A DNA stretch of 17,770 nucleotides from a virus: UHGV virus genome UHGV-0302460; one strand, given 5' to 3'. Shown here piece after piece: positions 1,075 through 16,376 of this stretch. The translations under genes were made by a program, and so were the position numbers. Within the stretch, counting starts at the first letter, position 1. Every line of letters begins with the position of its first letter. The notes beneath the pieces were generated by a model. That model was not told where the DNA came from. It did not search any database and saw nothing but the letters and a program-made list of their open reading frames with translations.

Positions 1075-3167
1075 CCTCCGGAAGTCAGCCAGGGGTTAAC
1101 ATCGTCAGTTACTGTTTTCTTCCGTTTTTGTTTTTTAACAGGCGTGGATACCGGTTCCGGTGAGGATGACGGTTCGGTACTGTCCTGGACACACTCCAGC
1201 CAGGTTTCCCGGCTCGCCCACTCCGGTGCATCCGGCCAGCGGATCTTTTCGTATCCATGCAGAATGACCAGAGCCTCGGCATACACCATCAGGTCAAAAG
1301 CTTCGTTGGCACCGCGACCCGGCTTACTCCATTTCCCGTCACTGCTCCGCTCTTCATACGTCAGTTCGTCGTAAAACCAGCTCCCCAGCCAGTCAGGGAA
1401 ATGCACATAGCCGGGACCTGGCGAGTCACGCCATAACGCGTTATTCACCCGGTCTTTCAGTGCATCCGTCTGAAGAAGCCAGAGCGGCACATCACCTGCG
1501 GCCTGCGCCCGTCGGCCCGTTCGTCCGGTGTTATCAGGGAATGTACGGGTGATCAGTTTTGCGCGCCGGATGCTGTCGCCCTTAAACAGGTAAATACGTT
1601 TACCAAGGCCATCACGACGGCAACGACGCCAGAATTTATAGGCATTATCAGTGACCCCGTCTTCACCGCCGGAGTCCACCGCCATTGCCATCAGTCGCAT
1701 TTGTTGAGAAGGATCGGAGGCCAGCGGCCAGCTTTTATGAAAAACATCCGTCAGCAGGACATCCCAGTCTTCCGGATAGCTGGCCGGATCAATTCGCTGG
1801 CTCTCCCCGTCGCTGTCACCGCGCAATGACTGCGTGATGTTGTAACGATCAATAATCCAGCGTTCGCCACGGCTGCCATAGCCCGTTACCTGAACCACAA
1901 AACGGCGATGACGTCCCGCCTGCACATCCACTGTCGCCACAAGGAAATTAACGCCATCCGGCACACTGCGGGAAGGAACTGGCTCTGCCCGCTGCTCAAG
2001 CAGTTCACTTTTTCGTTGCTCCATGCTGGCGCGGGGAAGATAAGGTAATCCCCAGTCGGTATTGATAACCGTCTTGAGTGTTTCTTCACTTCCGGTTGTC
2101 TCGTATTCCTGTTCTGCAGTAAGCAGTTTGTAAACGAGTTGCGAGAGTGTCTGGTAAGCAGCTGCCGGACCCTCCATCCAGAATGACGCAATACGTGAGC
2201 GTCGGGGATCACCATAACGACTGCCATCCGCATTGATGGATTCACCATCCCGCAACCAGACCCCACGTCCGTTCAGCTCACGTTTTTGTTCAGGCATAAT
2301 CCGTCCTGAACAGGAAGGACACTGAATATAAGCCGCCTCACTTGCCAGCACGGGATCGGCAATATCACGGAAACCAGCAACCACATCGCCGCAGGGCTGA
2401 AAATACTCACCACAGTGTGGACAAGGCCAGTACCAGCGACGGCGATCGCCACGGTTATAGAGCGACAGTATCCCCGTGGTTGGTGGAGCCTCATGCGGTG
2501 AAGTCCGTCGCCATTTCACATCCTTCACATCCCTGCCGGGGGAACTCTCCACAAGCGTCATACCACTGGACATAAATGTTGTGGTACGTTTTGAGGCAAG
2601 AGAGAAAGCATCCCCCTCGCCATCAATATCTTCCGGAAAACGGTCATAATCCGTCAGCGCGACGCATTTATAATCTGATGAGGACATGATATTGACTGAC
2701 GGCCAGCCGATTTTCAGGTAGTTACCAGCAAGGAATGTTCTGTCATAAACGTTGTTGTCATTTTTGTTCGGACTCAGGCGACTGACCACTTCCGGGCTGA
2801 CGCGAAACGTTCTGGCGAGTCGTTTTTTGGAGTGTTCGCGGGCTTTTTCCTCCGTCATCTGTATGATCAGCATATCAGCAGGATCGCAAATCACGTTGTA
2901 AATCACCCAGCCGTCAATCAGGCCGATAGTCTTGCCGGTTCGTGCCGGGCCAACAAATATCACTGCGTCGTATTCACGCGAGGCCAGGCAGTTCATCGGC
3001 TCAATAACATACGGTGCCACCAGCGGATCCCACGGGACTGAGTTCCCTGCCCCCATGGGCACCCGCATATACTGAGCAACGGCATCAGCAACCCGCATTC
3101 GTCTCGGTGCGCGAAGGATATAACCTGAATCGGTTCGTGCTGCCTTTGCGGTTTCCTGATTCAGCAT
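1065..3167 (-). CDS. Terminase large subunit, lambda gpA-like
   Basis: 700-aa ORF with a Walker A-like GPARTGKT motif and a WPCPHCGEYFQ motif resembling lambda A ACPHCGEEQYL. Its ATG overlaps the stop of the upstream small terminase (TAATG). Confidence 0.85.
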   Translation of the reverse strand: MLNQETAKAARTDSGYILRAPRRMRVADAVAQYMRVPMGAGNSVPWDPLVAPYVIEPMNCLASREYDAVIFVGPARTGKTIGLIDGWVIYNVICDPADMLIIQMTEEKAREHSKKRLARTFRVSPEVVSRLSPNKNDNNVYDRTFLAGNYLKIGWPSVNIMSSSDYKCVALTDYDRFPEDIDGEGDAFSLASKRTTTFMSSGMTLVESSPGRDVKDVKWRRTSPHEAPPTTGILSLYNRGDRRRWYWPCPHCGEYFQPCGDVVAGFRDIADPVLASEAAYIQCPSCSGRIMPEQKRELNGRGVWLRDGESINADGSRYGDPRRSRIASFWMEGPAAAYQTLSQLVYKLLTAEQEYETTGSEETLKTVINTDWGLPYLPRASMEQRKSELLEQRAEPVPSRSVPDGVNFLVATVDVQAGRHRRFVVQVTGYGSRGERWIIDRYNITQSLRGDSDGESQRIDPASYPEDWDVLLTDVFHKSWPLASDPSQQMRLMAMAVDSGGEDGVTDNAYKFWRRCRRDGLGKRIYLFKGDSIRRAKLITRTFPDNTGRTGRRAQAAGDVPLWLLQTDALKDRVNNALWRDSPGPGYVHFPDWLGSWFYDELTYEERSSDGKWSKPGRGANEAFDLMVYAEALVILHGYEKIRWPDAPEWASRETWLECVQDSTEPSSSPEPVSTPVKKQKRKKTVTDDVNPWLTSGGWL

Positions 3168-3661
3168 TACTCCTCCCGCTGTAATTCCTCCTCATCATCC
3201 GCACCTGCTTCGGTCACCCGCAGGGCTATCTGATCGCGCAGATCATCAATAATGGACTGAACACGGCTCACAGCGGCAGGCTGCAGACCGCAGTCACGTT
3301 CAAGAATATCCGGTAATGTCTCCAGCACCTGCACGACCGCTTTTGCCCAGATGGCAAACTCCCGTCTGACATCACTGGCCGGAATGAGTTGTGCCGTTTC
3401 CTGTTCGAACTTAAGACGCTCACGTTCAGACTGATACCAGGCTTTGCGCTCATGCGCGTCCATTTCGCCTTCTGCAACCGGCGGTGGTAATGCCAGAAAT
3501 GCCGACACAATATCAACCACCCGATAAAGCTTGAGGTTGCTTTCATGCCCCCCTGCAACGGGTAGATTTTGCAGCCTTGCCGCAGCAGTCTGGCGATGTA
3601 CACCTGACAGTGCCGCCAGTTGACTGATATTCAGCGTCAGATTTTTTAACTCTCGATCCAT
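3167..3661 (-). CDS. Terminase small subunit, Nu1-like
   Basis: 164-aa ORF directly upstream of, and translationally coupled to, the large terminase. N-terminal HTH-like segment (LTLNISQLAALSGVHRQTAAARL) and acidic C-terminus. A cos-like site lies about 170 bp upstream. Confidence 0.65.
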   Translation of the reverse strand: MDRELKNLTLNISQLAALSGVHRQTAAARLQNLPVAGGHESNLKLYRVVDIVSAFLALPPPVAEGEMDAHERKAWYQSERERLKFEQETAQLIPASDVRREFAIWAKAVVQVLETLPDILERDCGLQPAAVSRVQSIIDDLRDQIALRVTEAGADDEEELQREE

Positions 3662-3824
3662 ACCCGCTCCAGAATGTTTTAAACATGCATCTTGCGAACA
3701 ACTTTAGGCAAACGGTGTTAGTGATGAACAAAAAACAATCAAAATCGACACCACAAAAATAAAACCACTGTAATATCAATACATTACAGCAGTGGTGATG
3801 ACGAATGAAATTTCAAAAACTAGC

Positions 3825-3880
3825 CTTTTTCCGCGACGCTCCCGCCCCGTGGCAGGCCACCCCACCGGAAGGACCCGCCA
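3825..3880 (-). other. Putative cos packaging site (cosQ/cosN-like)
   Basis: Minus strand reads GCGGGTCCTTCCGGTG...CCACG GGGCGGGAGCGT CGCGG. From memory, the lambda right end and cos read ACGGGTCCTTTCCGGTGATCCGACAGGTTACG GGGCGGCGACCT CGCGGG. The putative 12-nt core maps to 3836..3847 and matches the lambda cohesive end at 8 of 12 positions, with conserved flanks. Confidence 0.45.
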
Positions 3881-4114
3881 AAATGAGAGTGATTATCACC
3901 ATTGCTGATGAATAAATTGATGAAAATCATTGAAACGCCTTTCAGCAAGATAACGGCGACGGTCGTTGTTGAACTCCGTAGCTCTGCTACTAAGGTTAAA
4001 AGCATGGCCATCTTTTGCCACCGGCAAATCTTCAATGGATTTCCCCTGCCGGTTTTTTATTCCTCACATTATCGCAGCCCCTCAGTGAAGGGCTGCTGTA
4101 ATGCCTGCTCTTAC

Positions 4115-4477
4115 TCAGTAACGACCGCGCCTTCCGGTAATTTCATACCGGCAAATACCGGACAGCCCGGGGATCGTTATCTGCAGCTGGTTAGCCAGGG
4201 AGTTAATCTCAGCGACCAACACTGGCTTCGTATAGCGCCATGCCGCCAGCCCTTGTCCACAGAAGCTCGCCATATCTTTTTTCTGATCAAACTCATGACA
4301 CTTCATATTGAGCTGCGCACTTAAGCTGTTGCGATGCTGAAGTTCTCCGGTGAAGTAGTCATCCAGGACTTTATAGGCTGCATATTTAAATCCGGGGTTT
4401 AGCCATGCTGCATAATCATAAGCAACAAACTTCCCGCCATATGTTCCACCGTGTACACCGCGCTCAGTAAAAACCAC
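4115..4477 (-). CDS. Hypothetical protein; N-terminus resembles the C-terminal half of a KilA-N domain, possibly a 5'-truncated remnant
   Basis: 120-aa ORF with a GTG start 21 nt after the minus-strand Rz stop. GGTYGGKFVAYDYAAWLNPGF resembles the KilA-N C-terminal motif GTWvHp.lA...A.WLsPeF, but the N-terminal half of the domain is absent. Confidence 0.35.
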   Translation of the reverse strand: MVFTERGVHGGTYGGKFVAYDYAAWLNPGFKYAAYKVLDDYFTGELQHRNSLSAQLNMKCHEFDQKKDMASFCGQGLAAWRYTKPVLVAEINSLANQLQITIPGLSGICRYEITGRRGRY

Positions 4478-4498
4478 AGATTCGTGTTTTTTCTCCAG

Positions 4499-4645
4499 CT
4501 ACTTAATGCGCTGGGTGCGGATATATTCCTGCGCCCCTTCCAGTTGCTTCTGCATCGTCATCAACCGTTCTCTGAGGGTGAAATAATCCCGTTCAGCGGT
4601 GTCTGCCAGTCGGGGGCTGGTTGCATTATCCATGCTGGTGGGTCC
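4499..4645 (-). pseudogene. Rz (i-spanin) C-terminal fragment on minus strand
   Basis: Minus-strand translation ...[50 protein letters not shown] with stop at 4501..4499 matches the lambda Rz C-terminus pattern. Its upstream continuation is broken at 4645/4646. Confidence 0.6.
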
Positions 4646-4913
4646 CGCTGACATGCAGCAGCGTCAGCGTGATGTTGCTGCGATCGATGCAAAATACACG
4701 AAGGAGTTAGCCGATGCGAAAACTGAAAATGAAACTCTGCGCGCTGATGTTGCCGCTGGTCGTAAGCGCCTGCGGGTCAATGCCAGTTGCTCCGCAGCCG
4801 TGCGTGAAGCCACCGGACCCACCAGCATGGATAATGCAACCAGCCCCCGACTGGCAGACACCGCTGAACGGGATTATTTCACCCTCAGAGAACGGTTGAT
4901 GACGATGCAGAAG
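4646..4913 (+). pseudogene. Internal Rz fragment in inverted (plus) orientation
   Basis: Plus-strand translation [88 protein letters not shown] is a contiguous mid-to-C-terminal Rz segment. It lacks the N-terminal TM anchor and the native C-terminus. Confidence 0.6.
4714..4899 (+). CDS. Rz1-like o-spanin lipoprotein, copy 1, nested in the inverted Rz fragment
   Basis: 61 aa: [61 protein letters not shown]. Signal peptide with lipobox-like VVSAC and a proline-rich body, typical of lambda Rz1, in the +1 frame inside Rz. Confidence 0.6.
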
Positions 4914-5222
4914 GCGCTTACGACCAGCGGCAACATCAGCGCGCAGAGTTTCATTTTCAGTTTTCGCATCGGCTAACTCCTTCGTGTATTTTGCATCGAT
5001 CGCAGCAACATCACGCTGACGCTGCTGCATGTCAGCGATGGTGGCGGTCGCCTGCTTCAGCTCACTGACTTTTTTATCACGCTGTTCTTTGTAGGCGATG
5101 GCGTTATCACGGTAATGATTGACCGCCCACGACAGGCAGACGATGATGCAGATAACCAAAGCATAAATAATCGCGGCGACTCTGAGTGAGCTGAAGCAGT
5201 CGATCGCCACCATCGCTGACAT
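4912..5222 (-). pseudogene. Rz (i-spanin) N-terminal fragment on minus strand, with TM anchor
   Basis: Minus-strand translation ...[93 protein letters not shown] matches the lambda Rz N-terminus [21 protein letters not shown].... The expected native start near 5184 is replaced by a junction; the only ATG is a fortuitous one at 5222. The fragment ends at the 4911/4912 junction. Confidence 0.6.
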
Positions 5223-5526
5223 GCAGCAGCGTCAGCGTGATGTTGCTGCACTCGATGCAAAGTACTCGAGAGAATTAGCCAATGCGAAAGCTGAAAATGA
5301 AACTCTGCGCGCTGATGTTGCCGCTGGTCGTCGTCGGTTGCACATCAAAGCAGTCTGTCAGTCAGTGCGTGAAGCCACCACCGCCTCCGGCGTGGATAAT
5401 GCAGCCTCCCCCCGACTGGCAGACACCGCTGAACGGGATTATTTCACCCTCCGGGAACGACTGGTAATGATGCAGGCCCAACTTGAAGGTGCTCAGCAAT
5501 ACATAACCGAGCAGTGTTTAAAGTAA
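5185..5526 (+). pseudogene. Rz (i-spanin) copy 2, N-terminally truncated, lacking the TM anchor
   Basis: Translation (L)[113 protein letters not shown] is very close to lambda Rz from about residue 45 to the end. There is an in-frame stop at 5164..5166 and the first ATG is at 5221. This resembles the rzpR pseudogene situation in the K-12 Rac prophage. Confidence 0.7.
5282..5467 (+). CDS. Rz1-like o-spanin lipoprotein, copy 2
   Basis: 61 aa: [61 protein letters not shown], nearly identical to lambda Rz1 as I remember it. Lipobox VVGC; nested in the +1 frame of Rz copy 2. Confidence 0.8.
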
Positions 5527-5663
5527 AATCTTAACTACAATATGATTCATTTTGATGATTGTTTCATAAGGAACAGTGAAGTAAGATCTAAGAGGAGTTA
5601 AATTTTATACAGTATAATCATAATATTGCAGCAAGGTGGTTATAATTGAAAGAATATTTAGAT

Positions 5664-7121
5664 ATGAATACATCTCATGTAAGAGTTGTTACTCATATGT
5701 GTGGGTTCCTGGTTTGGCTCTATAGTCTTTCAATGTTGCCACCAATGGTTGTAGCATTGTTTTATAAAGAAAAAAGCCTGTTCGTTTTCTTTATAACTTT
5801 CGTTATATTTTTTTGCATTGGTGGCGGAGCGTGGTATACAACTAAGAAATCTGGCATTCAATTACGTACCCGTGATGGGTTTATTATAATTGTAATGTTT
5901 TGGATTTTGTTTTCTGTTATTAGTGCATTCCCTTTATGGATTGACTCAGAACTTAATTTAACGTTCATTGATGCTCTGTTTGAAGGGGTTTCTGGAATAA
6001 CAACAACAGGAGCAACTGTAATTGATGATGTTAGTTCATTACCTCGGGCATATTTGTACTATCGGTCACAGTTAAATTTTATAGGTGGTTTAGGAGTTAT
6101 TGTTCTGGCGGTTGCTGTATTGCCATTATTGGGTATTGGTGGTGCAAAGCTTTATCAGTCAGAAATGCCGGGGCCATTTAAGGATGACAAACTCACTCCC
6201 CGCCTGGCCGATACGTCACGGACACTGTGGATAACTTATTCTTTATTAGGTATTGCTTGTATTGTCTGTTATAGACTTGCAGGAATGCCTTTGTTTGATG
6301 CTATTTGTCACGGGATTTCCACAGTTTCGCTTGGTGGTTTCTCAACTCATAGCGAGAGTATCGGATATTTTAATAACTATTTGGTTGAGCTGGTGGCTGG
6401 TTCTTTTTCCCTGCTATCGGCTTTCAACTTCACTCTTTGGTATATTGTTATTAGCAGGAAAACGATAAAACCTTTAATCAGAGATATTGAACTTCGTTTC
6501 TTTCTGTTAATAGCCTTAGGGGTGATCATTGTTACCTCTTTCCAGGTCTGGCATATAGGTATGTATGACTTGCATGGAAGTTTTATTCATTCGTTTTTTC
6601 TTGCCAGCTCCATGCTCACTGATAATGGTTTAGCTACGCAGGATTATGCAAGTTGGCCCACGCACACGATAGTGTTTTTGCTGTTGTCAAGTTTCTTTGG
6701 GGGATGTATAGGTTCAACTTGTGGTGGAATTAAGTCACTTCGATTTCTTATACTTTTCAAACAAAGCAAACACGAGATAAATCAGCTTTCTCATCCCAGA
6801 GCGTTGTTGAGTGTAAATGTAGGAGGGAAGATAGTTACAGATCGTGTAATGAGGTCTGTATGGAGTTTCTTTTTTCTTTATACTCTCTTCACGGTGTTTT
6901 TTATACTGGTGTTAAATGGTATGGGATATGATTTTCTTACATCATTTGCAACAGTGGCTGCATGTATTAATAATATGGGATTAGGTTTTGGGGCTACTGC
7001 ATCGTCATTCGGAGTGCTTAATGACATTGCAAAATGTTTAATGTGCATAGCTATGATTCTTGGTCGCCTTGAAATTTATCCTGTTATTATATTGTTTTCA
7101 GGTTTTTTTTGGCGCTCCTAA
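5664..7121 (+). CDS. trkG: TrkH/TrkG-family potassium uptake membrane protein
   Basis: Reading from the ATG at 5664 gives 485 aa starting MNTSHVRVVTHMCGFLVWLYSLSM..., which I recognise as E. coli TrkG (a Rac prophage gene). It is a multi-pass membrane protein with GIGG-type selectivity-filter-like motifs (LLGIGG, GFGATA). The coding region is strongly AT-rich compared with its flanks. The ORF-track start at 5646 is a TTG upstream extension. Confidence 0.88.
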   Translation: MNTSHVRVVTHMCGFLVWLYSLSMLPPMVVALFYKEKSLFVFFITFVIFFCIGGGAWYTTKKSGIQLRTRDGFIIIVMFWILFSVISAFPLWIDSELNLTFIDALFEGVSGITTTGATVIDDVSSLPRAYLYYRSQLNFIGGLGVIVLAVAVLPLLGIGGAKLYQSEMPGPFKDDKLTPRLADTSRTLWITYSLLGIACIVCYRLAGMPLFDAICHGISTVSLGGFSTHSESIGYFNNYLVELVAGSFSLLSAFNFTLWYIVISRKTIKPLIRDIELRFFLLIALGVIIVTSFQVWHIGMYDLHGSFIHSFFLASSMLTDNGLATQDYASWPTHTIVFLLLSSFFGGCIGSTCGGIKSLRFLILFKQSKHEINQLSHPRALLSVNVGGKIVTDRVMRSVWSFFFLYTLFTVFFILVLNGMGYDFLTSFATVAACINNMGLGFGATASSFGVLNDIAKCLMCIAMILGRLEIYPVIILFSGFFWRS

Positions 7122-7258
7122 TATATGGCTGATTTATAATTGTGAGTTTAATATTATGTTGACTCACTCATTGATCCAATACCTAACTTTACCAGCAACC
7201 CCTCCGTCCCCAGTAGCACTGGCTGCTGGGGTGCGTTTTATTCATAAAGCAAGGCTGT

Positions 7259-8050
7259 ATGAGCGAGAAATTAAAGATAGTCTATCGCCCATTACAAGAA
7301 TTGTCACCGTATGCGCACAACGCCAGGACGCACAGTACTGAGCAGGTGGCACAACTGGTAGAAAGTATTAAGCAATTCGGCTGGACTAATCCGGTGCTGA
7401 TTGACGAAAAGGGCGAAATTATTGCGGGTCACGGTCGTGTTATGGCGGCTGAAATGCTCAAAATGGATTCTGTTCCGGTCATTGTTCTGTCTGGCCTGAC
7501 GGATGAGCAGAAAAAGGCGTACCGCCTGGCAGATAATCGCCTGCCGATGAATGCTGGCTGGGATGAAGATCTGTTGCGGATGGAGCTGTCGGACCTAATC
7601 AATGCTGATTTTGATGTCTCCCTGACAGGCTTCATCCCGACAGAAATTGATGAACTGTTGACGGATGTTTTGCCCGGTACAGGAAATGAGGAGGAGCCGT
7701 ATACGACGAAAATTGATACGCCTGTTTATGAGCCGTCGGGCGGTAAACCGGATATCAGTGAACTGTACGACGATACGAAAACTCAGGAGCTGATCAGCCG
7801 GATACGTTCGGCGTCCCTTGAGCCTGATATTGAGAAATTCCTCCTGTGTGCGGCAGAACGTCACACGGTGTTTAATTTCAGCAGAATTGCGGACTATTAC
7901 GCTCACGCCCCCTCTGAAATTCAGTGTTTTTTCGAGGAGTCGGCGCTGGTGATCATTGATTATCAGCAGGCTATTGAAAATGGATTTGTCCGGATGACGC
8001 AGCGCATGGTGGAGATCATGCATGGTGGTGAGGAGGAGGAATATGCGTGA
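7259..8050 (+). CDS. ParB-like nuclease domain protein
   Basis: The 263-aa N-terminus IVYRPLQELSPYAHNARTHSTEQVAQLVESIKQFGWTNPVLIDEKGEIIAGHGRVMAA fits the ParB/Srx N-terminal domain pattern (GxGR motif). The position after trkG matches the ynaK region of Rac. Confidence 0.7.
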   Translation: MSEKLKIVYRPLQELSPYAHNARTHSTEQVAQLVESIKQFGWTNPVLIDEKGEIIAGHGRVMAAEMLKMDSVPVIVLSGLTDEQKKAYRLADNRLPMNAGWDEDLLRMELSDLINADFDVSLTGFIPTEIDELLTDVLPGTGNEEEPYTTKIDTPVYEPSGGKPDISELYDDTKTQELISRIRSASLEPDIEKFLLCAAERHTVFNFSRIADYYAHAPSEIQCFFEESALVIIDYQQAIENGFVRMTQRMVEIMHGGEEEEYA

Positions 8051-8975
8051 TGATTTTTGCGCCTTTATTCTGACTCACGGGCGACCGGACAAAGTTCTGA
8101 CTTACCGGACGTTGCGTCGTGCTGGCTATACCGGGAAAATTTTTATCGTTGTTGATGATGAAGATAAGACACGGAATCAGTACATGGCTGAATTTGGTGA
8201 ACAGGTGCTGGTGTTTTCCAAAGCCGATATCGCCAGTCGTTTTGACGAAGCCGATAATTTCTGTGACCGCCGCTCAATTTTTTACGCCCGTAATGCCTGT
8301 TTCGACCTGGCAAAACTGGTCGGGTGTAAATACTTCATTCAGCTCGATGATGATTATCACGAGTTCCAGTTTCGGGTGGATCGCAACTATGACCAGGCCT
8401 ATTTTCCGATAAGGAAACTGGATGCGATCCTTTCTGAAATGCTGGCGTACTACGAATCAATACCTGCTCTTTCCATCGCTATGTCGCAGGGCGGGGATTT
8501 TCTTGGTGACAATGGCGGCCATGCTTCGTGGGTGAAACGCAAGGCAATGAACAGCTTTATCTGTTCGGTTGATCGACCGTTCTCATTCATGGGGCGCATT
8601 AACGAGGATGTGAATACGTACACGAATCTCGGTCGCTGTGGTGAATTGTTTATGACGATCGGTGCTGTCCAGTTAGGGCAGAAACAGACGCAGAAAAACA
8701 GCGGCGGAATGACCGAGCTGTATCTGGATTCCGCAACCTACGTTAAAAGTTTTTACTCCGTCATGTATGCGCCGTCGTGCGTAAAAATCTCACTGATGGG
8801 TGCCAGCCATAAACGCATTCACCATCAGGTCACCTGGAACAACGCTGCAGTAAAAATCCTTCACGAAAAATACAGGAAGAAGACACCCTGCATATCAATG
8901 GGGGTGACAAATGATTCCGTATTCGAAAGTCGAGTCTCTGGCAGCGTGCCGGATGACTGCACAACAAATCGCTGA
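8043..8975 (+). CDS. Hypothetical protein with possible GT-A glycosyltransferase-like features; function unknown
   Basis: ATG at 8043 follows a strong SD (GAGGAGGAGGA, 8029..8039) and overlaps the ParB-like stop, so it is preferred over the ORF-track start at 8022. N-terminal FILTHGRPDKVL...KIFIVVDDED and a later QLDDDY motif resemble a GT-A Rossmann-like fold with a DxD motif; this is a weak, motif-level call. Confidence 0.5.
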   Translation: MRDDFCAFILTHGRPDKVLTYRTLRRAGYTGKIFIVVDDEDKTRNQYMAEFGEQVLVFSKADIASRFDEADNFCDRRSIFYARNACFDLAKLVGCKYFIQLDDDYHEFQFRVDRNYDQAYFPIRKLDAILSEMLAYYESIPALSIAMSQGGDFLGDNGGHASWVKRKAMNSFICSVDRPFSFMGRINEDVNTYTNLGRCGELFMTIGAVQLGQKQTQKNSGGMTELYLDSATYVKSFYSVMYAPSCVKISLMGASHKRIHHQVTWNNAAVKILHEKYRKKTPCISMGVTNDSVFESRVSGSVPDDCTTNR

Positions 8976-9162
8976 CGTTCTGGATGTTGATCTGAACCGA
9001 CTGAAAGAAAATCGGGAAGCAATGACAGATTTTTATGCGGCCATCCGTAAGGGCAGAGCGAAAGGTGAAGCCGAGTTACGAGCGGCATTGTTTAAGCTTG
9101 CCAGAAAAGGGGATGCCTTTGCTCTGCGCGAACTACTCAGGGTGGATAAAAATCAGGACTAA
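8911..9162 (+). CDS. Small HTH-like protein, possibly terminase-associated
   Basis: 83-aa ORF immediately upstream of the small terminase. The helix-turn-helix-like segment MTAQQIADVLDVDLNRL is followed by a basic helical region. Start is uncertain (8911 or 8953); it overlaps the upstream gene by 65 nt if 8911 is used. Confidence 0.45.
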   Translation: MIPYSKVESLAACRMTAQQIADVLDVDLNRLKENREAMTDFYAAIRKGRAKGEAELRAALFKLARKGDAFALRELLRVDKNQD

Positions 9163-9165
9163 CTG

Positions 9166-10260
9166 ATGAGCAGACCGGACTGGGGGGCGTTGCAGCAGGA
9201 GTATATTGCTGAATACACCCGCTCCGGTATATCTCCGGTGGCATGGTGTGAAGCAAGGGGACTGAATTACGCAACAGCCCGTCGTTACATCAAAAAAACT
9301 CCGAAAAATGCGCAGACAGAAATGTGCAAAACTGCGCAAAAAAGTGCGCAGAAAAAATCTGCGCAGACTGCACAAAAGCGGAACGAAAAATCTCAGGAAA
9401 AAAAGCCAGTATTCGATGCGGGCCTGAATGAGGGCGACGCGGAGGAATTTTCGTTCTGTCCCGATGAATTCGGCATTTCTGACCAGCAGGCTAAGTTTGC
9501 GATGCTTGTTGCTCAGGGTAAAAAGCCGACAGAGGCGTACCGACTAGCCGGTTATGAGGGGCAAGGTGCGACAGCTAACAGCAACGCCAGTCGTATGCTT
9601 AGAAATGCCAGGGTTTTTCGCGCTATCAGCTACTTCCGCAATCAGTACCAGAAACGCTATACCGCAGACCTGGATTTACTAGTGAGTCAGTTGATGGCTA
9701 TTGTCCTGGCCGACCCCAATCAGCTTGCACAATTTCGCCGTGTTAACTGCCGTTATTGCTGGGGCGAGAATCATCTCTACCAGTGGCGCGATATAGCAGA
9801 ATTCGACAAGGCAGCGGCGCAGGCTTCCAGAGATGGCAAACCCGAACCGGAATATGGAGGCCTCGGCTTTGTTGATAACGCCATACCCAATCCGGACTGC
9901 CCGAAGTGCTGCGGTGAGGGAACGGGACAGCTTTATATGGCTGATACCACTCTGCTTGATGGGGATGCGCGGCAATTATATGCAGGGGCAAAATTCGGAA
10001 AATTCGGCGTTGAGATCCTGCTGGAGGATAAGGCTGCCGCCCGGCGTGAATTGTTGCGTTTGTTTTCTGCTGGCGGGGCTTTATGTGCAGATAAACGGCT
10101 ACAGGAACTGGAAATTGAACGGCGCAGAATGGAAAACCAGAAGCTGCGCAAAGAGATCGAAACGGTGGAAGATAATGAACATCCCCAGCCTGTGGCGATC
10201 AATATTAATGTGGTTGATGCCAGAGTAAGGAGTGATGAAGATGATCTCTCCGACGCTTAA
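9166..10260 (+). CDS. Terminase small subunit (P27-like family), long form with Cys4 motif
   Basis: Central segment ISDQQAKFAMLVAQGKKPTEAYRLAGYEG...NASRMLRNARV matches the terminase small-subunit signature. It sits directly upstream of the large terminase. It also has a low-complexity K/A/Q-rich stretch, a CRYCWG...CPKCCGEG zinc-ribbon-like motif and a C-terminal coiled-coil-like segment. Confidence 0.7.
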   Translation: MSRPDWGALQQEYIAEYTRSGISPVAWCEARGLNYATARRYIKKTPKNAQTEMCKTAQKSAQKKSAQTAQKRNEKSQEKKPVFDAGLNEGDAEEFSFCPDEFGISDQQAKFAMLVAQGKKPTEAYRLAGYEGQGATANSNASRMLRNARVFRAISYFRNQYQKRYTADLDLLVSQLMAIVLADPNQLAQFRRVNCRYCWGENHLYQWRDIAEFDKAAAQASRDGKPEPEYGGLGFVDNAIPNPDCPKCCGEGTGQLYMADTTLLDGDARQLYAGAKFGKFGVEILLEDKAAARRELLRLFSAGGALCADKRLQELEIERRRMENQKLRKEIETVEDNEHPQPVAININVVDARVRSDEDDLSDA

Positions 10261-11542
10261 TGTGCCTCAGGCGCGATTTCTTTCAATGCCCCATAAATTT
10301 AAAGCCTATATTGCTGGTTTTGGCTCGGGCAAAACATGGGTTGGGTGTGGCGGCATATGCAAGGGGATTTGGGAGCATCCAGGTATAAATCAGGGATATT
10401 TTGCGCCAACGTATCCCCAAATTCGCGATATTTTTTACCCTACAGTGGAAGAAGTTGCTGCTGACTGGGGATTGAACGTAAAAATTAATGAGGGAAATAA
10501 AGAGGTTCACTTTTATTACGGACGCCAGTATCGGGGAACCACTATCTGCAGATCGATGGAGAAGCCACAAACGATCGTCGGTTTCAAAATTGGTAATGCG
10601 TTGGTGGATGAACTGGACATTTTGCCGAAGGAAAAAGCCAGAACGGCGTGGCGCAAGATAATTGCACGTATGCGTTATAAGATTGATGGACTTCGCAACG
10701 GTATTGACGTTACAACCACGCCGGAAGGATTCAAATTTGTCTACGAGCAGTTTGTTAAAGCCGTGCGTGAAAAAACAGAGCTGGCCTCACTGTATGGTCT
10801 GGTGCAGGCATCTACTTTCGATAATGAAAAGAACCTGCCAGCAGATTACATTCCTTCGCTTCTTGAATCATACCCTCCAGAGCTGATTAAAGCCTATCTT
10901 CGAGGACAGTTTACTAACCTGACAAGTGGTACTGTTTACCATCAGTTTGACCGGAAACTGAATAATTGCGAAGAAGTGGAGCAGCCAGGGGAGCCGATTT
11001 ATATTGGGATGGATTTTAACGTTGGAAAGATGGCGGGAATCGTCCATGTGCTGCGTTTGGGGCTTCCATGTGCGGTAACTGAAATCATCAATGCCTACGA
11101 TACGCCGGATATGATCCGCATCATTAAAGAACGCTTCTGGCTGTATGATGGGAATGATTACCGGAAAGTGAGGGAAATTTATATTTATCCAGATGCTTCC
11201 GGGGATTCCAGAAAATCAAGTAACGCAAGTACGACGGATATAGCCCAGCTTAAGCAGGCTGGTTTTAACGTTGTGGTGAACAGCTCGAACCCGCCAGTAA
11301 AAGATCGCGTTAACTCAATGAATGCAATGTTCTGCAATGCCAATGGTGAGCGTCGCTATAAAGTTAATGTGAAGCGTTGCCCGTTATATGCCGAATCTCT
11401 GGAGCAACAGGTCTGGGATGAGAAGGGGGAGCCTGATAAAAAATCTGGCAATGATCACCCGAATGATGCCGGAGGTTATTTCATCGTTAAGCAATTCCCT
11501 ATTGTCAAACCGACCGGAAGAGTCACATCACTTCGGATTTAA
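10241..11542 (+). CDS. Terminase large subunit
   Basis: Walker A-like AGFGSGKTW near the N-terminus, nuclease-type acidic residues in the C-terminal half, and a position between small terminase and portal. The ATG at 10241 is preferred because of the AAGGAG at 10227..10232; alternative starts are the GTG at 10232 and the ATG at 10235. Confidence 0.85.
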   Translation: MISPTLNVPQARFLSMPHKFKAYIAGFGSGKTWVGCGGICKGIWEHPGINQGYFAPTYPQIRDIFYPTVEEVAADWGLNVKINEGNKEVHFYYGRQYRGTTICRSMEKPQTIVGFKIGNALVDELDILPKEKARTAWRKIIARMRYKIDGLRNGIDVTTTPEGFKFVYEQFVKAVREKTELASLYGLVQASTFDNEKNLPADYIPSLLESYPPELIKAYLRGQFTNLTSGTVYHQFDRKLNNCEEVEQPGEPIYIGMDFNVGKMAGIVHVLRLGLPCAVTEIINAYDTPDMIRIIKERFWLYDGNDYRKVREIYIYPDASGDSRKSSNASTTDIAQLKQAGFNVVVNSSNPPVKDRVNSMNAMFCNANGERRYKVNVKRCPLYAESLEQQVWDEKGEPDKKSGNDHPNDAGGYFIVKQFPIVKPTGRVTSLRI

Positions 11543-11544
11543 TT

Positions 11545-12951
11545 ATGGCTGATATATCAACACCCAACCTCGACTATAACGATATGCTGGAGGCGTGGGA
11601 TATTAACGACGCACTGATGGGCGGTACGCTTGAAATGCGCAGGCAGGGGGAAAATTATCTCCCAAAATGGCCTAACGAAGATGAAGACGCTTATAAAAAA
11701 CGCCTGTCTGTGGCTACGCTACTTCCTGTGTATGAAGAAAGCATCAAGCAAAATATTGGGCGCATATTTGCAGAGCCGACAGTATTGAGTGAGGAAACGC
11801 CGGCAAAAATCAGGGAATATGCAGAAAATATCGACATGGAGGGGAGCCGACTGGATGTGTGGGCGCAGCAATTTTTCAGCCTCGCATTTCAGTATGGTGT
11901 GGCACATGCGCTGGTGGACTATCCACGAACGGATATGAAAGAGATTCGTACAAAAGCCGATGAAAACGCGACCGGTGGTCGTCCGTACGTTACGATGCTG
12001 AATCCACGCCAGGTTATTGGATGGAAATCGAAAGTTGAAAAAGGGAAAGTTGTTCTCACTGATTTGCGTATAAAAGAGGTCATCATTATTGATGGTGATG
12101 ATTTCGGGCAGAAGAAGGTGGAGCAGATCCGCCATATTATGCCCCGTCGAGTTGAAATTTATCGACGTAGCGAAGGCACTAATGGCGAATCTGTCTGGAC
12201 GCTTCATGAGTCATGGAATACCAGCCGTGATGATATTCCTCTGGTAACACTGTACACGAAGAAAACAGGATTTATGCGTGGTACACCGCCATTGCTTAAT
12301 CTTGGCTTGCTGAATATCAAGCACTGGCAAAGCCAGAGCGAGCAGGACAATATTCTTCATGTTACCCGCGTTCCATTGCTGGTGGCCTACGGGCTGGACA
12401 GGAATGAAGAACTGACGGTTGGTGCATCCACCGCTACGATTTTTGAGGACAGAACAAAAAATGGCCTCGAATATGTTGAACATAGTGGCGCAGCGATAGA
12501 ATCTGGCGAAACATCACTTGAGAAGCTGGAAAATCAGATGCGTCATGCCGGCGCTAAACTTCTGCGTGCTGAAAATACATCCACCAAATCTGTTGATCAG
12601 ACTAATGAAGAGCGAATGCAGGAAAACTCGCCGCTTTATACAATGGCGAACTCCCTCGAAGATGCCCTCGATAATATTCTCCAGATAATGGCGGAATGGA
12701 TCGGAGAGAGTTGCGGTGGCAATGTGGATGTGCGCACTGAACTGGATGTATCTGCCCAGGTGTTTGACTCATCCTCCGCGCTGGCTGTTCAGTCATTGCG
12801 TCAGGGCGGTGATATACGTCAGATTGATGCGGTTCGGGTGTTGCAGGCGTTGAAATTTATCGATCAGGATTCCCGTCCAGAGGAAGTGATCGATGAATTA
12901 AAAAATCAGAGTGTAATGCTGATGGAAATCAATGATGCAAACCGTGAATGA
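11545..12951 (+). CDS. Phage portal protein
   Basis: 468-aa ORF immediately after the large terminase and before the head-morphogenesis gene, with size and position typical of a portal. No motif was verified. Confidence 0.7.
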   Translation: MADISTPNLDYNDMLEAWDINDALMGGTLEMRRQGENYLPKWPNEDEDAYKKRLSVATLLPVYEESIKQNIGRIFAEPTVLSEETPAKIREYAENIDMEGSRLDVWAQQFFSLAFQYGVAHALVDYPRTDMKEIRTKADENATGGRPYVTMLNPRQVIGWKSKVEKGKVVLTDLRIKEVIIIDGDDFGQKKVEQIRHIMPRRVEIYRRSEGTNGESVWTLHESWNTSRDDIPLVTLYTKKTGFMRGTPPLLNLGLLNIKHWQSQSEQDNILHVTRVPLLVAYGLDRNEELTVGASTATIFEDRTKNGLEYVEHSGAAIESGETSLEKLENQMRHAGAKLLRAENTSTKSVDQTNEERMQENSPLYTMANSLEDALDNILQIMAEWIGESCGGNVDVRTELDVSAQVFDSSSALAVQSLRQGGDIRQIDAVRVLQALKFIDQDSRPEEVIDELKNQSVMLMEINDANRE

Positions 12952-14047
12952 ACGGCTGCGTGATGAATCAATTGCTCATGCAGTCTGGATATCCCGCTAT
13001 AGCACTGGCGTGGCTGCCAGAATGGTGAAAATACTGAATGACAGCGATGCGGAACTTACTGCTCGCCTGCTGATAGCACTGGACAGCCTCGATCCAGGTA
13101 ATTTTACCGTTAAGCGCCTGGAGTCACTTCTGGCGAGCGTCAGAGAGGTTAACCGCACTGCTATTAACAGCATGTTTACCAGTCTCTCCGGAGAGCTGAA
13201 CGAGCTGGCAATTTATGAGGCTGGTTATCAGTTAAGTCTGTTTGATTCTATGCTACCTGATTTTGTTGCTGATGTTCACCCTCTGGTTGGTATCTCTCCT
13301 GATGCACTTTATGCCGCTGCAATGGCGCGACCATTCCAGGGACGACTGCTCAGTGAGTGGGCCTCAGATCTTGAGGCGGATCGGCTCAGACGCATAACAA
13401 ATACAGTGCGTCAGGGTTTTTTGCTGGGGGATACCAATGAGCAGATCGCAAGAAAAATTCGGGGACATGTCAGTAAGGGATTTCAGGATGGTGCATTGCA
13501 GATGAGCCGGGCTAATGCGGCCAGCATTGCAAAAACAGCGGTTGGACATCTTGCTGCTACTGCCCGTGAGAGTTTTGCCAGCGCGAATAATGATTTGATT
13601 AAGGGTAAGCAATGGTTATCAACGCTTGATAATCGTACTACGCCACAATGTCGAATCAGGGATCGCCTCAAATATACGCTGAATAATAAACCTGTAGGTC
13701 ACAGCGTGCCTTATTTGCAGGGGCCGGGAAAAATTCATTTCTGCTGCCGCTCAACGGAAACGTTCATTCTGAAATCAGCGAAGGAACTGGGTATTGATGT
13801 TCGCGATATTTCCCCGGCTGAGCGGGCCAGCATGGATGGCGTGGTGGCCGGAGATACAACCTACAGGGAATGGTTTTTGCGTCAGCCTTACACCAGACAA
13901 AAACAGATTGTGGGGGAAACCCGAGCAAAGCTGATTCGGGATGGTGGTATGTCGCCAGATGAATTTTACACCGATAAAGGCGAATGGCTGACGCTGAAGC
14001 AGCTCCGTGAGCGTGATGCACAGGTATTCAGAAAAGCAGGGATTTAA
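12932..14047 (+). CDS. Head morphogenesis protein (Mu F-like / SPP1 gp7-like minor head protein)
   Basis: 371 aa following the portal. Contains the characteristic ...LSTLDNRTTPQCRIRD... motif seen in Mu F-like head morphogenesis proteins. Confidence 0.7.
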   Translation: MMQTVNERLRDESIAHAVWISRYSTGVAARMVKILNDSDAELTARLLIALDSLDPGNFTVKRLESLLASVREVNRTAINSMFTSLSGELNELAIYEAGYQLSLFDSMLPDFVADVHPLVGISPDALYAAAMARPFQGRLLSEWASDLEADRLRRITNTVRQGFLLGDTNEQIARKIRGHVSKGFQDGALQMSRANAASIAKTAVGHLAATARESFASANNDLIKGKQWLSTLDNRTTPQCRIRDRLKYTLNNKPVGHSVPYLQGPGKIHFCCRSTETFILKSAKELGIDVRDISPAERASMDGVVAGDTTYREWFLRQPYTRQKQIVGETRAKLIRDGGMSPDEFYTDKGEWLTLKQLRERDAQVFRKAGI

Positions 14048-14066
14048 ATAAATCATTTATTACAAC

Positions 14067-14093
14067 AGGCTACCTTCGGGTGGCCTTTTTTAT
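14067..14093 (+). terminator. Putative rho-independent terminator (UUCG tetraloop hairpin plus T-tract)
   Basis: AGGCTACC-TTCG-GGTGGCCT forms an 8-bp stem (one G-T wobble) with a TTCG loop, followed by TTTTTTATT, just downstream of the head-morphogenesis stop. Confidence 0.55.
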
Positions 14094-14151
14094 TGCTGCG
14101 ATCCGGATGGTGAGCAGCGTAACTGTCGGAAGACTTAAACCAGGTACTAAT

Positions 14152-14916
14152 ATGAAACTGAAAACGGTCGAGATTAACGGAAAACAATACGCAGAAATTG
14201 ATACTGCTGGCCTGCCAGTTTATGTGCACGACGATGGTAAAGAAATTGGCTTCGATGCACCGCTGGCGACAAAAAAAATTACAGAGCTTAATGGCGAGGC
14301 AAAAAATCATCGCCTGGCTAAAGAAGCTGCAGAGGAAAAACTGGCTAAGTTTGCCGCTATCGAAGACCCGAAGAAGGCGATCGAGGCACTGGAAATGCTG
14401 TCAAAAATCGACCAGAAAAAGCTGCTCGATGCGGGACAGGTTGACCAGGTTAAGGCAGAAATTACGAAAAATTTTCAGCAGCAATTAGATGAAGAAAAGC
14501 AACGCTCTCAGATGCTGGAGAAGCAGCTTTACGATTCTATGATTGGCGGTAGTTTTGCGGGTTCAAAATATATTGCCGATAAAATTGCGATCCCGGCAGA
14601 TTTATTACAAGCCCGCTTCGGGCAGGCATTCAAAGTGGAAGAAGGGAGGATCGTTGCTTATGACGCTTCCGGCAACAAAATTTATTCCCGCGCGAAGCCT
14701 GGCGAACTGGCGCAGTTTGATGAGGCGCTGGAGTTCCTTGTCGAAAATTACCCTCAGAAAGACTACATCCTGAAAGCCAGTGGCAACAATGGCGGCGGCT
14801 CCCGTCCGACACAGCATGATATTGGTCAGAAAACGATGAAACGCTCTGCTTTTGATGCACTGGATGTTGCAGGTAAGCAAAACGCATTGAAAGACGGTAT
14901 CACAATCGTTGATTAA
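14152..14916 (+). CDS. Scaffolding protein (putative)
   Basis: About 254 aa, charged and predicted helical (EEKLAKFAAIEDPKKAIEALEMLSKIDQKKLL...), located immediately upstream of the major capsid gene. Start is uncertain (ATG 14152 preferred; ATG 14107 possible). The ORF-track start at 14080 would lie inside the terminator hairpin. Confidence 0.55.
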   Translation: MKLKTVEINGKQYAEIDTAGLPVYVHDDGKEIGFDAPLATKKITELNGEAKNHRLAKEAAEEKLAKFAAIEDPKKAIEALEMLSKIDQKKLLDAGQVDQVKAEITKNFQQQLDEEKQRSQMLEKQLYDSMIGGSFAGSKYIADKIAIPADLLQARFGQAFKVEEGRIVAYDASGNKIYSRAKPGELAQFDEALEFLVENYPQKDYILKASGNNGGGSRPTQHDIGQKTMKRSAFDALDVAGKQNALKDGITIVD

Positions 14917-15014
14917 CACATTTGTCAGCTTCCGGATGGGAGCTGGTGTCAGGGCTGGATAGCTCATTACTCCATCTATTCACAATTACGCAAATTTTTA
15001 AGGAATATTTAATT

Positions 15015-16154
15015 ATGGCTGGAAATACCCTGACCGGGTTGATCCCGACTATTTATACCGCCCTGGATGTTGTATCCCGTGAGCAGGTAGGTTTTATCCC
15101 TGCGGTAGCAAAAAACGCAAAAGCTGACGCCGCAGCAAAAGATCAGACGGTAACCGCGCCAGTTGCGCCTGAGGCGAAAACCGAAGATATCGTACCGGGG
15201 CCGTCAGCTCCGAATACCGGTGATCAAAATATTGGCACTGTTGATGTAAAAATTACTAAATCCAAAATGGCACCGGTTAAATGGAATGGTGAAGAACAAC
15301 TGGCTCTTGGCCCTTCAGGGACTTACAACACCATTCTGGCTGATCAGTTCAAGCAGGCTTTTCGCGCCCTTGCAAACGAGGTTGAGGCTGATCTTGGTGC
15401 GTTGTATTTCGGTGCTTCCCGCGCCGTGGGAACCGCAGGGACAACGCCGTTTGGTGTTAAAGATGATCTTTCTGATGCTGCTCTGGCTCGTCAGGTTCTG
15501 GAGGATAACGGCGCACCGACAACCGATCTGCAGATGGTGCTTGGCTCCACTGCCATTGCTAATTTGCGCGGAAAACAGTCTGTATTGTTTAAAGTGAATG
15601 AATCCGGCACTGAACAGCTACTGCGTGAGGGCGTGTTGGGGCGTCTGGAGGGATTCAATATTCACAGTTCGGCAGGTGTGAAACGAGCGCCAAAGGTTGC
15701 TGCAACTGGTTATCTCGTGAATGGAGAGAAAAAAGAAGGCGATGTTCTTATTTCCATTGATACTGGTTCGGGGAGTATTTCTGCAGGTCAGATTGTTACG
15801 TTCGCTGGTGATCCGAATCAGTATGTTGTGGCAGCAGCGACCAGCAATCTGATTACTCTTGCAGCGCCCGGACTGCGTCAGGATCTGGCCGATGATACTG
15901 CCATCACAGTTGTTGGGGCCTTTACGGCAAATATGGCGTTTGATCGCAACGCGTTTCTGCTGGCATCCCGTACTCCGGCAATGCCGGAAGGTGGCGATAA
16001 TGCTGATGATGTAATGAATGTTACGGACCCGATTTCAGGGATTACGTTCCAGATTGCACTGTATCGTCAGTATCGCCAGGTGCGCTATGAAGTTGGACTG
16101 GCATGGGGTGTTTCATCAGTGAAGCCGGCACATGGTTGTCTGATTCTTGGTTAA
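15015..16154 (+). CDS. Major capsid protein (putative)
   Basis: ATG at 15015 follows AAGGA. About 379 aa, downstream of the scaffold and followed by a strong terminator. Segments such as TPFGVKDDLSDAALARQVLEDNGAP and GVLGRLEGFNIHSS resemble phage coat proteins. Confidence 0.7.
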   Translation: MAGNTLTGLIPTIYTALDVVSREQVGFIPAVAKNAKADAAAKDQTVTAPVAPEAKTEDIVPGPSAPNTGDQNIGTVDVKITKSKMAPVKWNGEEQLALGPSGTYNTILADQFKQAFRALANEVEADLGALYFGASRAVGTAGTTPFGVKDDLSDAALARQVLEDNGAPTTDLQMVLGSTAIANLRGKQSVLFKVNESGTEQLLREGVLGRLEGFNIHSSAGVKRAPKVAATGYLVNGEKKEGDVLISIDTGSGSISAGQIVTFAGDPNQYVVAAATSNLITLAAPGLRQDLADDTAITVVGAFTANMAFDRNAFLLASRTPAMPEGGDNADDVMNVTDPISGITFQIALYRQYRQVRYEVGLAWGVSSVKPAHGCLILG

Positions 16155-16164
16155 ACATTCAAAC

Positions 16165-16187
16165 GGGGCTTCGGCCCCATTTTTAAT
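16165..16187 (+). terminator. Putative rho-independent terminator (UUCG tetraloop hairpin plus T-tract)
   Basis: GGGGC-TTCG-GCCCC followed by ATTTTTAAT, 11 nt after the capsid stop. Confidence 0.55.
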
Positions 16188-16196
16188 GGGGGGCAT

Positions 16197-16373: not shown

Positions 16374-16376
16374 CAC

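Follow-up and report, generated by a model that had tools for sequence, protein, structure and literature searches.

The glycosyltransferases (GTs) closest to the enzyme discussed here belong to Pfam family PF20691, known as TAGT ("TET-associated glycosyltransferase"). The PF20691 member of the phages T2 and T6, a β-glucosyl-HMC-α-glucosyltransferase, transfers a second glucose onto glucosyl-5-hydroxymethylcytosine (glucosyl-5hmC) (PMC13216743, PMC13390438), and the T6 enzyme, whose substrate is α-glucosyl-5hmC, needs a dCMP hydroxymethylase and an α-GT to precede it (PMC13216743). Other phage GT-A enzymes glycosylate the 5hmC that is produced by phage methyltransferase/TET pairs (bioRxiv 10.1101/2023.12.21.572611), with about 65% of the GT contigs, those without a base-modification neighbour, having been set aside in that work (Pyle et al.; same preprint), and in a 2026 survey of 753 GT-carrying phages, the TAGT of 288 is described as "solitary" and has no known function (PMC13216743). 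There is also precedent for partner proteins of such enzymes: a phage ParB protein is required for a phage thymine dioxygenase acting on double-stranded DNA (PMC13229309), and the T4 α-GT binds the gp45 clamp (PMC13216743). Here we analyze a stretch of viral DNA of 17,770 nucleotides, UHGV virus genome UHGV-0302460 (the whole of which we refer to as the window), and in it a pair of genes lying between a trkG moron and the terminase genes, which encode an acidic ParB-like protein, termed here the adaptor or ParB-X, and a TAGT-family GT of 310 amino acids (aa). The window adds an orphan TAGT from a prophage type that is among the commonest in E. coli. Comparison across viruses establishes that the obligatory partner of the GT is a linker motif together with the C-terminal domain (CTD) of the adaptor, not its ParB domain, and our preferred explanation, to which we assign a probability of roughly 0.5, is that the pair constitutes a clamp-tethered, late-expressed DNA glycosylation module made up of enzyme and adaptor.

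The pairing was surveyed in 50 close loci (56–99% GT identity), in 79 diverse loci from IMG/VR, each 26–31% identical to a Porphyromonas phage GT, and also in phages in culture and on large contigs from metagenomes. In every one of the 50 close viral and prophage loci, the gene immediately upstream of the GT gene is that of the adaptor. Among the diverse loci, an open reading frame (ORF) with the linker motif and CTD is found directly upstream of the GT in 75 and one gene further up in one, the other three having the GT at the contig edge, which makes the pairing complete (76 of 76) wherever the contig leaves room for it. The same pair is present in the Lactobacillus phages phi jlb1 and c5, Nocardia phage NTR1, Porphyromonas phage phage005 and the archaeal (Haloarcula) virus HHTV-2, as well as in 191-kb Vibrio phages (pv27) and on 217-kb metagenomic contigs. 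The reciprocal check, covering 50,697 phage records, returned 28 records that hold the CTD, all of them among the 36 that hold the GT. The constant partner is the motif and CTD, which accompany the GT also in loci with adaptors devoid of a ParB domain.

The 310-aa protein is a GT-A transferase, predicted to depend on a metal, of the TAGT family, a known phage DNA-glycosylating family. It matches PF20691 over profile positions 4–205 of 205 with 121 bits against a cut-off of 27.5 (E 8e-35) and phrog_842 with an E of 6e-103, and the best matches of its structural model among the viral models of BFVD are TAGT-domain proteins (E down to 9.6e-22); Pfam, BFVD and PHROGs label the family and its viral matches as DNA-modification glycosyltransferases, with the PGAP/NCBI name for the protein being "GREB1-related protein". 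In the PDB, the leading Foldseek matches are GT-A enzymes without exception (among them SpsA, SunS/ThuS, glycogenin and collagen galactosyltransferase), although at 9–16% identity these are generic. The original prediction, made from the sequence, had guessed at a GT-A fold from two acidic segments, IVVDDED and QLDDDY, which turn out to be the family's invariant acidic motifs; in alignments reaching from E. coli to Porphyromonas and haloarchaeal viruses the invariant residues are R14, D38, D41, D102–D104, D189 and H260–H261, and they fit the R...DDD...EDY/F pattern reported for phage GT-A DNA glycosyltransferases (bioRxiv 10.1101/2023.12.21.572611). The profile and structure searches that it had proposed for this protein thus lead with confidence to a transferase family that includes known DNA glycosyltransferases. 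The AlphaFold2 model (predicted TM-score 0.69) is confident for the first 150 residues but poor through much of its C-terminal half, and a sequence search for a solved TAGT structure found none. The protein is soluble and, as had been predicted in setting it apart from GtrB-type enzymes, it has no membrane segment, the maximum 19-residue Kyte-Doolittle mean being 1.08 compared with 2.62 for TrkG. In E. coli the GT ends in a tail of ~25 aa (8897–8975) that has no counterpart in Salmonella, Klebsiella or more distant homologues (287–290 aa) and crosses the start of the following 83-aa gene in another reading frame; it looks like the result of a stop-codon shift, not a functional extension.

The adaptor consists of a ParB/Srx N-terminal domain (aa 1–95), a helical segment (aa 96–135), a disordered acidic linker, the CTD and an acidic tail; its AlphaFold2 model has the NBD at 1–95, helices at 103–134, a predicted local distance difference test score (pLDDT) below 50 at 136–164 and a helical CTD at 166–254. 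Membership of the N-terminal domain in the ParB/Srx fold (PF02195, ParB_N superfamily), which the original prediction had proposed, is borne out, and aa 3–141 match phrog_498, annotated "DNA methyltransferase". The linker contains a near-invariant motif with the consensus YTxKIxxPxYEPxG, in which P155 never varies among the homologues from bacterial and archaeal viruses, while conservation reaches 90% or more at Y148, T149 and Y157. Mean pairwise identity is 43–46% over motif and CTD and 46% over the CTD alone, compared with 32% over the ParB domain, and the CTD matches no Pfam family. The nucleotide box reads N21-A-R23, S36 and G57-H-G-R60, with the last Arg kept and H in place of the catalytic E. 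The opposite charges of the two proteins (median isoelectric point 9.1 for the basic GT family, 4.7 for the acidic adaptors) agree with the enzyme-adaptor module proposed below, and the adaptor looks to be an acidic, non-catalytic partner built to hold the GT on DNA. Despite its GenBank labels, the adaptor is not to be classed as a partition protein: a chromosome- or plasmid-partition ParB was considered and rejected, the match to TIGR00180 reaching 38 bits against a cut-off of 58.45 and covering the N-terminal domain only, with no helix-turn-helix (HTH) family in aa 128–263 and no parA annotated nearby.

Adaptors come in two types. Among the 79 diverse loci, 44 have an adaptor with the ParB domain and 32 (~40%) a short one of ~130 aa without it, in which the linker motif is kept. 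At 24 of the 27 complete, distinct ParB-less adaptors the protein starts with a Qxx[LMIV]F sequence (QINLF, QVNLF, QLNMF and QLRLF are examples), placed 16–20 residues ahead of the linker motif, compared with 2 of 42 ParB-type adaptors; in a shuffling control a mean of 0.45 (maximum 4) of 25 unique pre-regions carried such a sequence, against 22 observed. The consensus for binding the bacterial β clamp is QL[SD]LF, and the motif of UmuC is QLNLF. The Qxx[LMIV]F start of the ParB-less adaptors thus resembles, in its residues, a β-clamp-binding motif. The two types also differ in where they are found: the terminase large subunit (TerL) is encoded within 2.5 kb downstream in 31 of the 44 ParB-type loci and in 4 of the 32 ParB-less ones, the latter tending to sit among replication genes, and the TerL proteins that follow ParB-type pairs come from several families (Terminase_6N, Terminase_3, TerL_ATPase, gpA and T7-type). 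Of the two points that a neighbourhood survey was to check, whether the two genes co-occur and whether they always precede the small terminase, the first is borne out; adjacency to the terminase is usual for ParB-type pairs and mostly fails for the ParB-less. There are, in sum, two alternative N-terminal modules, a ParB domain or a clamp-binding-like peptide, with a split between packaging-linked and replication-linked loci. The adaptor in the window is of the ParB type, and the clamp-like peptide pertains to its ParB-less relatives.

Several variations on the pair were observed in passing. One ParB-less locus (L187) has the order PolA, adaptor, GT and a DnaN-like β clamp, and a search for further phage-encoded β clamps beside the pair gave only this one locus. 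Directly upstream of several ParB-less adaptors lie proteins of ~250 aa without a Pfam match (L166 6852–7613, L168 4325–5077, L171 255–1013), which could be a further recurrent partner. Some GT relatives are fused to a class I methyltransferase, to a C-terminal sulfotransferase, to an N-terminal P-loop kinase-like domain or to a second TAGT in tandem; in one relative a class I methyltransferase gene lies between adaptor and GT, and in another an NAD-dependent sugar epimerase is adjacent. These fused or adjacent functions (L187 5270–9940, L192 1151–1981, L175 7126–8010, proteins P0265 and P0288) may point to glycans with further decoration and to versions of the system that are coupled to replication. 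A fusion of ParB and GT was also looked for and discarded as a candidate, with the long GT homologues carrying other domains and none matching the adaptor profile.

Set against the described systems, the window GT shares with the T2/T6 enzyme its Pfam family, phrog_842, the GT-A fold and the R, DDxD and DDD motifs, but neither a dCMP hydroxymethylase nor an α-GT was found with it. It represents a distant subfamily, because tblastn at E 1e-3 did not detect the T-even phages, and differs from T2/T6 in a conserved C-terminal extension of ~60 aa past the Pfam model and in its obligatory adaptor gene. The enzymes of the methyltransferase/5mYOX (TET) clusters, which are post-replicative and have ParB and terminase genes as frequent neighbours, share the fold and the R...DDD...EDY/F pattern (Pyle et al., bioRxiv 10.1101/2023.12.21.572611; Cell Rep 2024); they act on 5hmC from an adjacent methyltransferase and dioxygenase, whereas no such genes were found beside the window-type pair. 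The closest likeness to the adaptor is ParB176 of the ParB176/5mYOX176 pair (O'Toole et al., PNAS 2026, PMC13229309), which has the same architecture of a ParB NBD, short helices, a disordered linker and a CTD without HTH, this likeness being judged by the published description of ParB176, not by its sequence. The 5mYOX-activating ParB has N for the catalytic Q and H or D for the E of the GERR box, the window adaptor has N and H at these places, and each is encoded beside its enzyme partner, which modifies DNA in the former case and would do so in the latter. The client of ParB176 is a dioxygenase, whereas that of the window adaptor is a GT, the gene next to the adaptor being that for the GT and not a cognate 5-methylpyrimidine dioxygenase; the linker of the ParB176 type is described as non-conserved, unlike the near-invariant motif here, and the window-type CTD occurs only together with the GT in the phage records searched. 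The coupling of a DNA glycosyltransferase to a sliding clamp has been seen by pull-down for T4 α-GT and gp45 (PMC13216743), to which the N-terminal peptide of ParB-less adaptors and the DnaN-like gene of L187 are analogous. T4 α-GT is of GT-B fold and binds the clamp itself, whereas the window module has a separate adaptor and a predicted ParB-domain tether rather than the replication clamp. DpdB is a ParB/Srx-fold partner of DpdA, which inserts 7-deazaguanine into DNA. In DpdA/DpdB, and in phage fusions of a ParB N-domain with methyltransferases, a ParB/Srx fold is paired with a DNA-modifying enzyme, as is proposed here, but the clients are a transglycosylase and methyltransferases, and the partners have no counterpart of the motif and CTD module. 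The ParB-methyltransferase fusions are enriched in prophages (PMC12704722). Our literature search found no description of the obligatory motif and CTD adaptor, of the ParB-less form with its clamp motif or of the split between packaging and replication, although the 2013 paper that defined TAGT may mention a ParB-TAGT pairing.

Known DNA O-glycosylation needs a hydroxyl group, provided by 5hmC, 5-hydroxymethyluracil (5hmU), 5-hydroxycytosine or a sugar, and the TAGT-family enzymes with a known role on phage DNA use a hydroxymethylated base only. The annotation of the Rac-like phage holds no enzyme for a hydroxylated base; in the complete genome of phage c5 (31.8 kb, 50 ORFs) the unassigned ORFs do not exceed 208 aa and gave no TET/JBP or other relevant match; and ten genes directly upstream of ParB-less adaptors include no dioxygenase, three of them coding for the ~250-aa proteins without a Pfam match. 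In the neighbour Pfam censuses around the 79 loci (133 downstream and 97 upstream proteins), TET_JBP is not among the 25 most frequent families, which leaves room for rare occurrence. The "TET-associated" context, in the sense of a gene partner that creates a hydroxyl, was accordingly not found in the Rac-like phage, in c5 or among those 25 families.

The original prediction had proposed that the pair is a plausible, uncharacterised DNA-modification or packaging-associated module, and the TAGT family membership and the constant pairing support the former of these; that DNA is the acceptor, that the adaptor contacts the GT and tethers it to DNA, and that the modification serves against host defences are what we infer. 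In the mechanism that we propose, the linker motif and CTD of the adaptor would bind and activate the GT, and the ParB/Srx domain, an NTP-gated fold that forms DNA clamps, would keep the complex on double-stranded DNA; in the relatives without a ParB domain, the β-clamp-binding-like peptide at the N-terminus would do the same by tethering the complex to the replication clamp. Late transcription would yield the module along with the terminase, so that it would meet phage DNA that has been replicated and is about to be, or is being, packaged, a timing suggested because the pair follows the trkG terminator and heads the packaging genes of the late region. Progeny phages would thereby enter the next host with sugars on their DNA as a shield from restriction or other defences aimed at DNA. 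A more specific version, which we put forward tentatively and regard as somewhat doubtful, is that the pair glycosylates canonical DNA directly without a hydroxymethylated precursor, with the sugar attached either to an exocyclic amine as an N-glycoside or to the backbone or the DNA ends.

Several observations weigh against a clamp-tethered DNA glycosylation module. No TET/JBP protein, ThyS-type hydroxymethylase, C5-methyltransferase or first-sugar GT was found with the pair in the searches just described, and we came upon no experiments on the DNA of phages with this pair. The family member GREB1 of humans acts on protein, which it O-GlcNAcylates (PMC7968844). The clamp motif is a resemblance in sequence only, its carriers are related to each other and form one conserved feature, not independent events, and the adaptors of Vibrio phage pv27 have neither the ParB domain nor Qxx[LMIV]F. 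The residues of the NTP box vary across ParB-type adaptors, with GNKT and GNGV in distant ones, and the GT model has low confidence over half of its length (pLDDT <50 beyond about residue 216).

A first rival takes the GT to be a protein glycosyltransferase, with the acceptor being either a Tyr or Thr of the adaptor's own YTxKIxxPxYEP segment, as in the self-glucosylating glycogenin, or a packaging or virion protein of the same operon. In its favour, the near-invariant motif has many Tyr, Thr and Ser residues and is part of a disordered linker, no DNA acceptor base is supplied and ParB-type pairs stand at the head of the structural operon; there are also parallels in GREB1 and in the fold neighbours SunS and ThuS, which are peptide glycosyltransferases, and glycogenin. 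Those fold matches are nevertheless the generic GT-A ones of low identity, the three databases label the family or its viral matches as DNA-modifying, and neither the ParB clamp domain or clamp-binding-like peptide of the partner nor the location of ParB-less pairs in replication modules is accounted for; we consider a protein acceptor unlikely. A role as packaging accessory, in which the ParB-like protein would be a centromere-binding or nuclease-like factor that marks or processes pac or cos ahead of terminase action, with a secondary or regulatory part for the GT, would fit the site immediately upstream of the terminase small subunit (TerS) or TerL, which is conserved across several terminase families and phyla, as well as phage NTR1, where no TerS is annotated between GT and TerL, and phage c5, where the pair is the first gene set after cos. 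Given that ~40% of the adaptors have no ParB domain and that those pairs are mostly far from the terminase (4 of 32 within 2.5 kb), that the universal elements are the catalytically intact enzyme motifs and the CTD partner, not a DNA-recognition domain, that the adaptor is strongly acidic and without HTH, and that most loci have a separate TerS, we regard such a role as improbable.

The pair might also be only the downstream half of a hydroxymethyl-pyrimidine pathway, with 5hmU or 5hmC supplied by a dioxygenase encoded elsewhere, on a co-resident element or too divergent to be recognized, and with the pair otherwise idle. TAGT and ParB genes are indeed often found near phage 5mYOX genes (GTs 31%, ParBs 27%, terminases 19%), thousands of 5mYOX-like sequences escape the Pfam TET/JBP model (PMC13229309), and the ParB domain of the adaptor shows the substitutions described for 5mYOX-associated ParBs. 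This possibility is decidedly improbable in view of the c5 genome, whose largest hypothetical proteins fall short of dioxygenase size and give no TET/JBP match, of the absence of TET_JBP from the neighbour families listed, of the direct adjacency of adaptor and GT in 75 of 76 loci, and of the purifying selection and deep conservation of the bare pair, which argue against idleness. Least probable is a lysogenic-conversion enzyme of Gtr type that alters the host surface polysaccharide, even though the genes adjoin the trkG moron of a temperate prophage and the GT-A fold is common to many envelope glycosyltransferases: the GT has no hydrophobic segment, no flippase and no GtrA/GtrC-type partner is annotated in the neighbourhood, a terminator splits the block from trkG while translational coupling ties it to the terminase genes, the partner of ParB type or clamp type is obligatory, and the pair occurs in strictly lytic-looking and archaeal viruses as well.

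What the comparative work provides is a testable architecture, consisting of an obligatory adaptor domain, two interchangeable putative DNA-tethering devices, and packaging- and replication-linked versions. If the target is DNA, the pair would point to a DNA modification that is new or is at least made by a new route, with a bearing on restriction and defence evasion, on host range in phage therapy and on tools for enzymatic DNA labelling; if it is a protein, the pair would represent a new use of the ParB fold. Direct glycosylation of canonical DNA, should it occur, would be a chemically new DNA modification made by a minimal two-protein system, whose adaptor rides DNA by its own ParB clamp or, in other phages, by the host β clamp, and which is found in the prophages of about one-sixth of the E. 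coli genomes that are complete, as well as among viruses that infect Firmicutes, Actinobacteria, Bacteroidetes, Vibrio and haloarchaea.

The coordinates of the block and of the adjoining terminase genes are collected in Table 1.

Table 1. Positions in the window of the adaptor-GT pair, its motifs and the flanking features
Feature	Position	Strand	Basis or remark
Terminator-like hairpin closing the trkG moron	7208..7231	+	10-pair stem, 7 G-C, then TGCGTTTTAT (T-run)
Adaptor "ParB-X", 263 aa, pI 4.5	7259..8050	+	ParB/Srx N-domain protein
Linear motif YTTKIDTPVYEPSG, aa 148-161, in the disordered linker of the adaptor	7700..7741	+	near-invariant in homologues
Helical CTD and acidic tail of the adaptor, aa 166-263	7754..8047	+	part always accompanying the GT
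TAGT-family GT-A glycosyltransferase, 310 aa, core ~285 aa, pI 8.5	8043..8975	+	PF20691
DDED, GT aa 38-41, first acidic motif of the GT-A active site	8154..8165	+	sequence reading
DDDY, GT aa 102-105, DxD-type metal and nucleotide-sugar motif	8346..8357	+	sequence reading
83-aa basic protein, small-terminase-related	8911..9162	+	phrog_309; alternative start 8953
TerS (context)	9166..10260	+	Pfam Terminase_2 E 4e-8; phrog_51 E 2e-75
TerL (context)	10232..11542	+	Pfam Terminase_6N E 4e-33; Terminase_6C E 3e-10

The ORF list and the sequence place a block of three coupled genes (7259–8050, 8043–8975 and 8911–9162) between the trkG terminator and the small terminase, exactly where the original prediction had put it. 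The hairpin falls between the trkG stop (7121) and the first ATG of the block, 28 nucleotides (nt) ahead of it. The reading frames of adaptor and GT overlap by 8 nt, with the ATG of the GT overlapping the adaptor stop at 8048–8050 (ATGCGTGA) and being preceded by GAGGAGGAGG; the 83-aa gene shares 65 nt with the 3′ end of the GT gene and has GGGGGTG upstream of its start, and TerS begins 3 nt past its stop. The coupling and strong ribosome-binding sites that had been described are thus seen in the overlaps and in the sites of the second and third genes, whereas the adaptor's own site (AAGG) is only moderate. Two starts allow other readings: the GT could begin at 8022 (317 aa), although database homologues begin at the start of the 310-aa form, and GenBank phage records annotate a 69-aa version of the third protein from 8953. 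The block is separated from trkG by the terminator and coupled to the terminase genes, and therefore it opens the packaging part of the late region.

The 83-aa protein, which had been counted as part of the group, is better assigned to the terminase. It is basic, matches phrog_309 ("terminase small subunit") at E 8e-23 and no Pfam family, and its gene intervenes between GT and TerS in enterobacterial loci only, the GT abutting TerS directly in the Lactobacillus and Porphyromonas phages. By these matches and this distribution it probably belongs with the packaging recognition machinery, not with the modification pair.

Positions 5185–17532 of the window are collinear, at 99.6% identity, with the induced Rac-like phage vB_EcoS-683R6, and at least 80% of the 1.9-kb block is found in 867 of 5,426 complete E. 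coli genomes. The adaptor and GT genes are not chance ORFs, because both are conserved across phyla and have ratios of nonsynonymous to synonymous substitution (dN/dS) of 0.06–0.16 against relatives of 88–93% identity, which indicates purifying selection; against relatives of 75–82% the ratio is uninformative, dS being saturated. In the Rac prophage of E. coli K-12, ynaK and ydaY had been named as the counterparts of the pair. The former corresponds to the first 254 nt of the adaptor gene, whereas ydaY is not the equivalent of the GT: it is unrelated to it, was brought beside the truncated ynaK by a deletion in K-12 and, in intact relatives, is a tail-region gene ~11 kb downstream.

Some further features of the window lie outside the block. 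The Rac-like segment starts abruptly at 5185, 123 nt within its own Rz/spanin gene, and to the left of this point lies a different lambdoid late region in opposite orientation, with perfect inverted duplications (4547–4645 against 4815–4913 and 4646–4771 against 4912–5037, 100% complementary); the stretch 3600–5700 is present in one piece in no complete E. coli genome. For the structure at 4547–5331 there are two readings, a fold-back that arose in assembly and a rare rearrangement; the latter, if real, would have disconnected the late operon from the Q/pR′ and lysis genes that belong to it. At the right end, positions 17635–17770 of the window are a 99% inverted copy of sequence ~140–280 nt upstream in the window and match positions 30233–30098 of vB_EcoS-683R6 (L001), in which the collinear match ends at 30274; this is another fold-back, at the opposite boundary of the Rac-like segment, and again suggests an assembly artefact. 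On the minus strand at 1065–3661 there is a second, lambda-type terminase pair, comprising a gpA-like large subunit (GpA_ATPase, GpA_nuclease) and a DUF1441 protein in the Nu1 position, which belongs to another prophage. The protein encoded at 12932–14047 is a Mu F-like head-morphogenesis protein (Pfam E 1e-8) that is labelled "NAD+--asparagine ADP-ribosyltransferase" in a near-identical phage record, and a toxin or ADP-ribosyltransferase (ART) domain fused to a minor head protein is possible. Finally, the early region of vB_EcoS-683R6 (L001 9953–13971), which lies outside the window, has a block annotated as LygF, kinase fragment, FtsH-like protein and S8 peptidase that looks like a defence-type moron.

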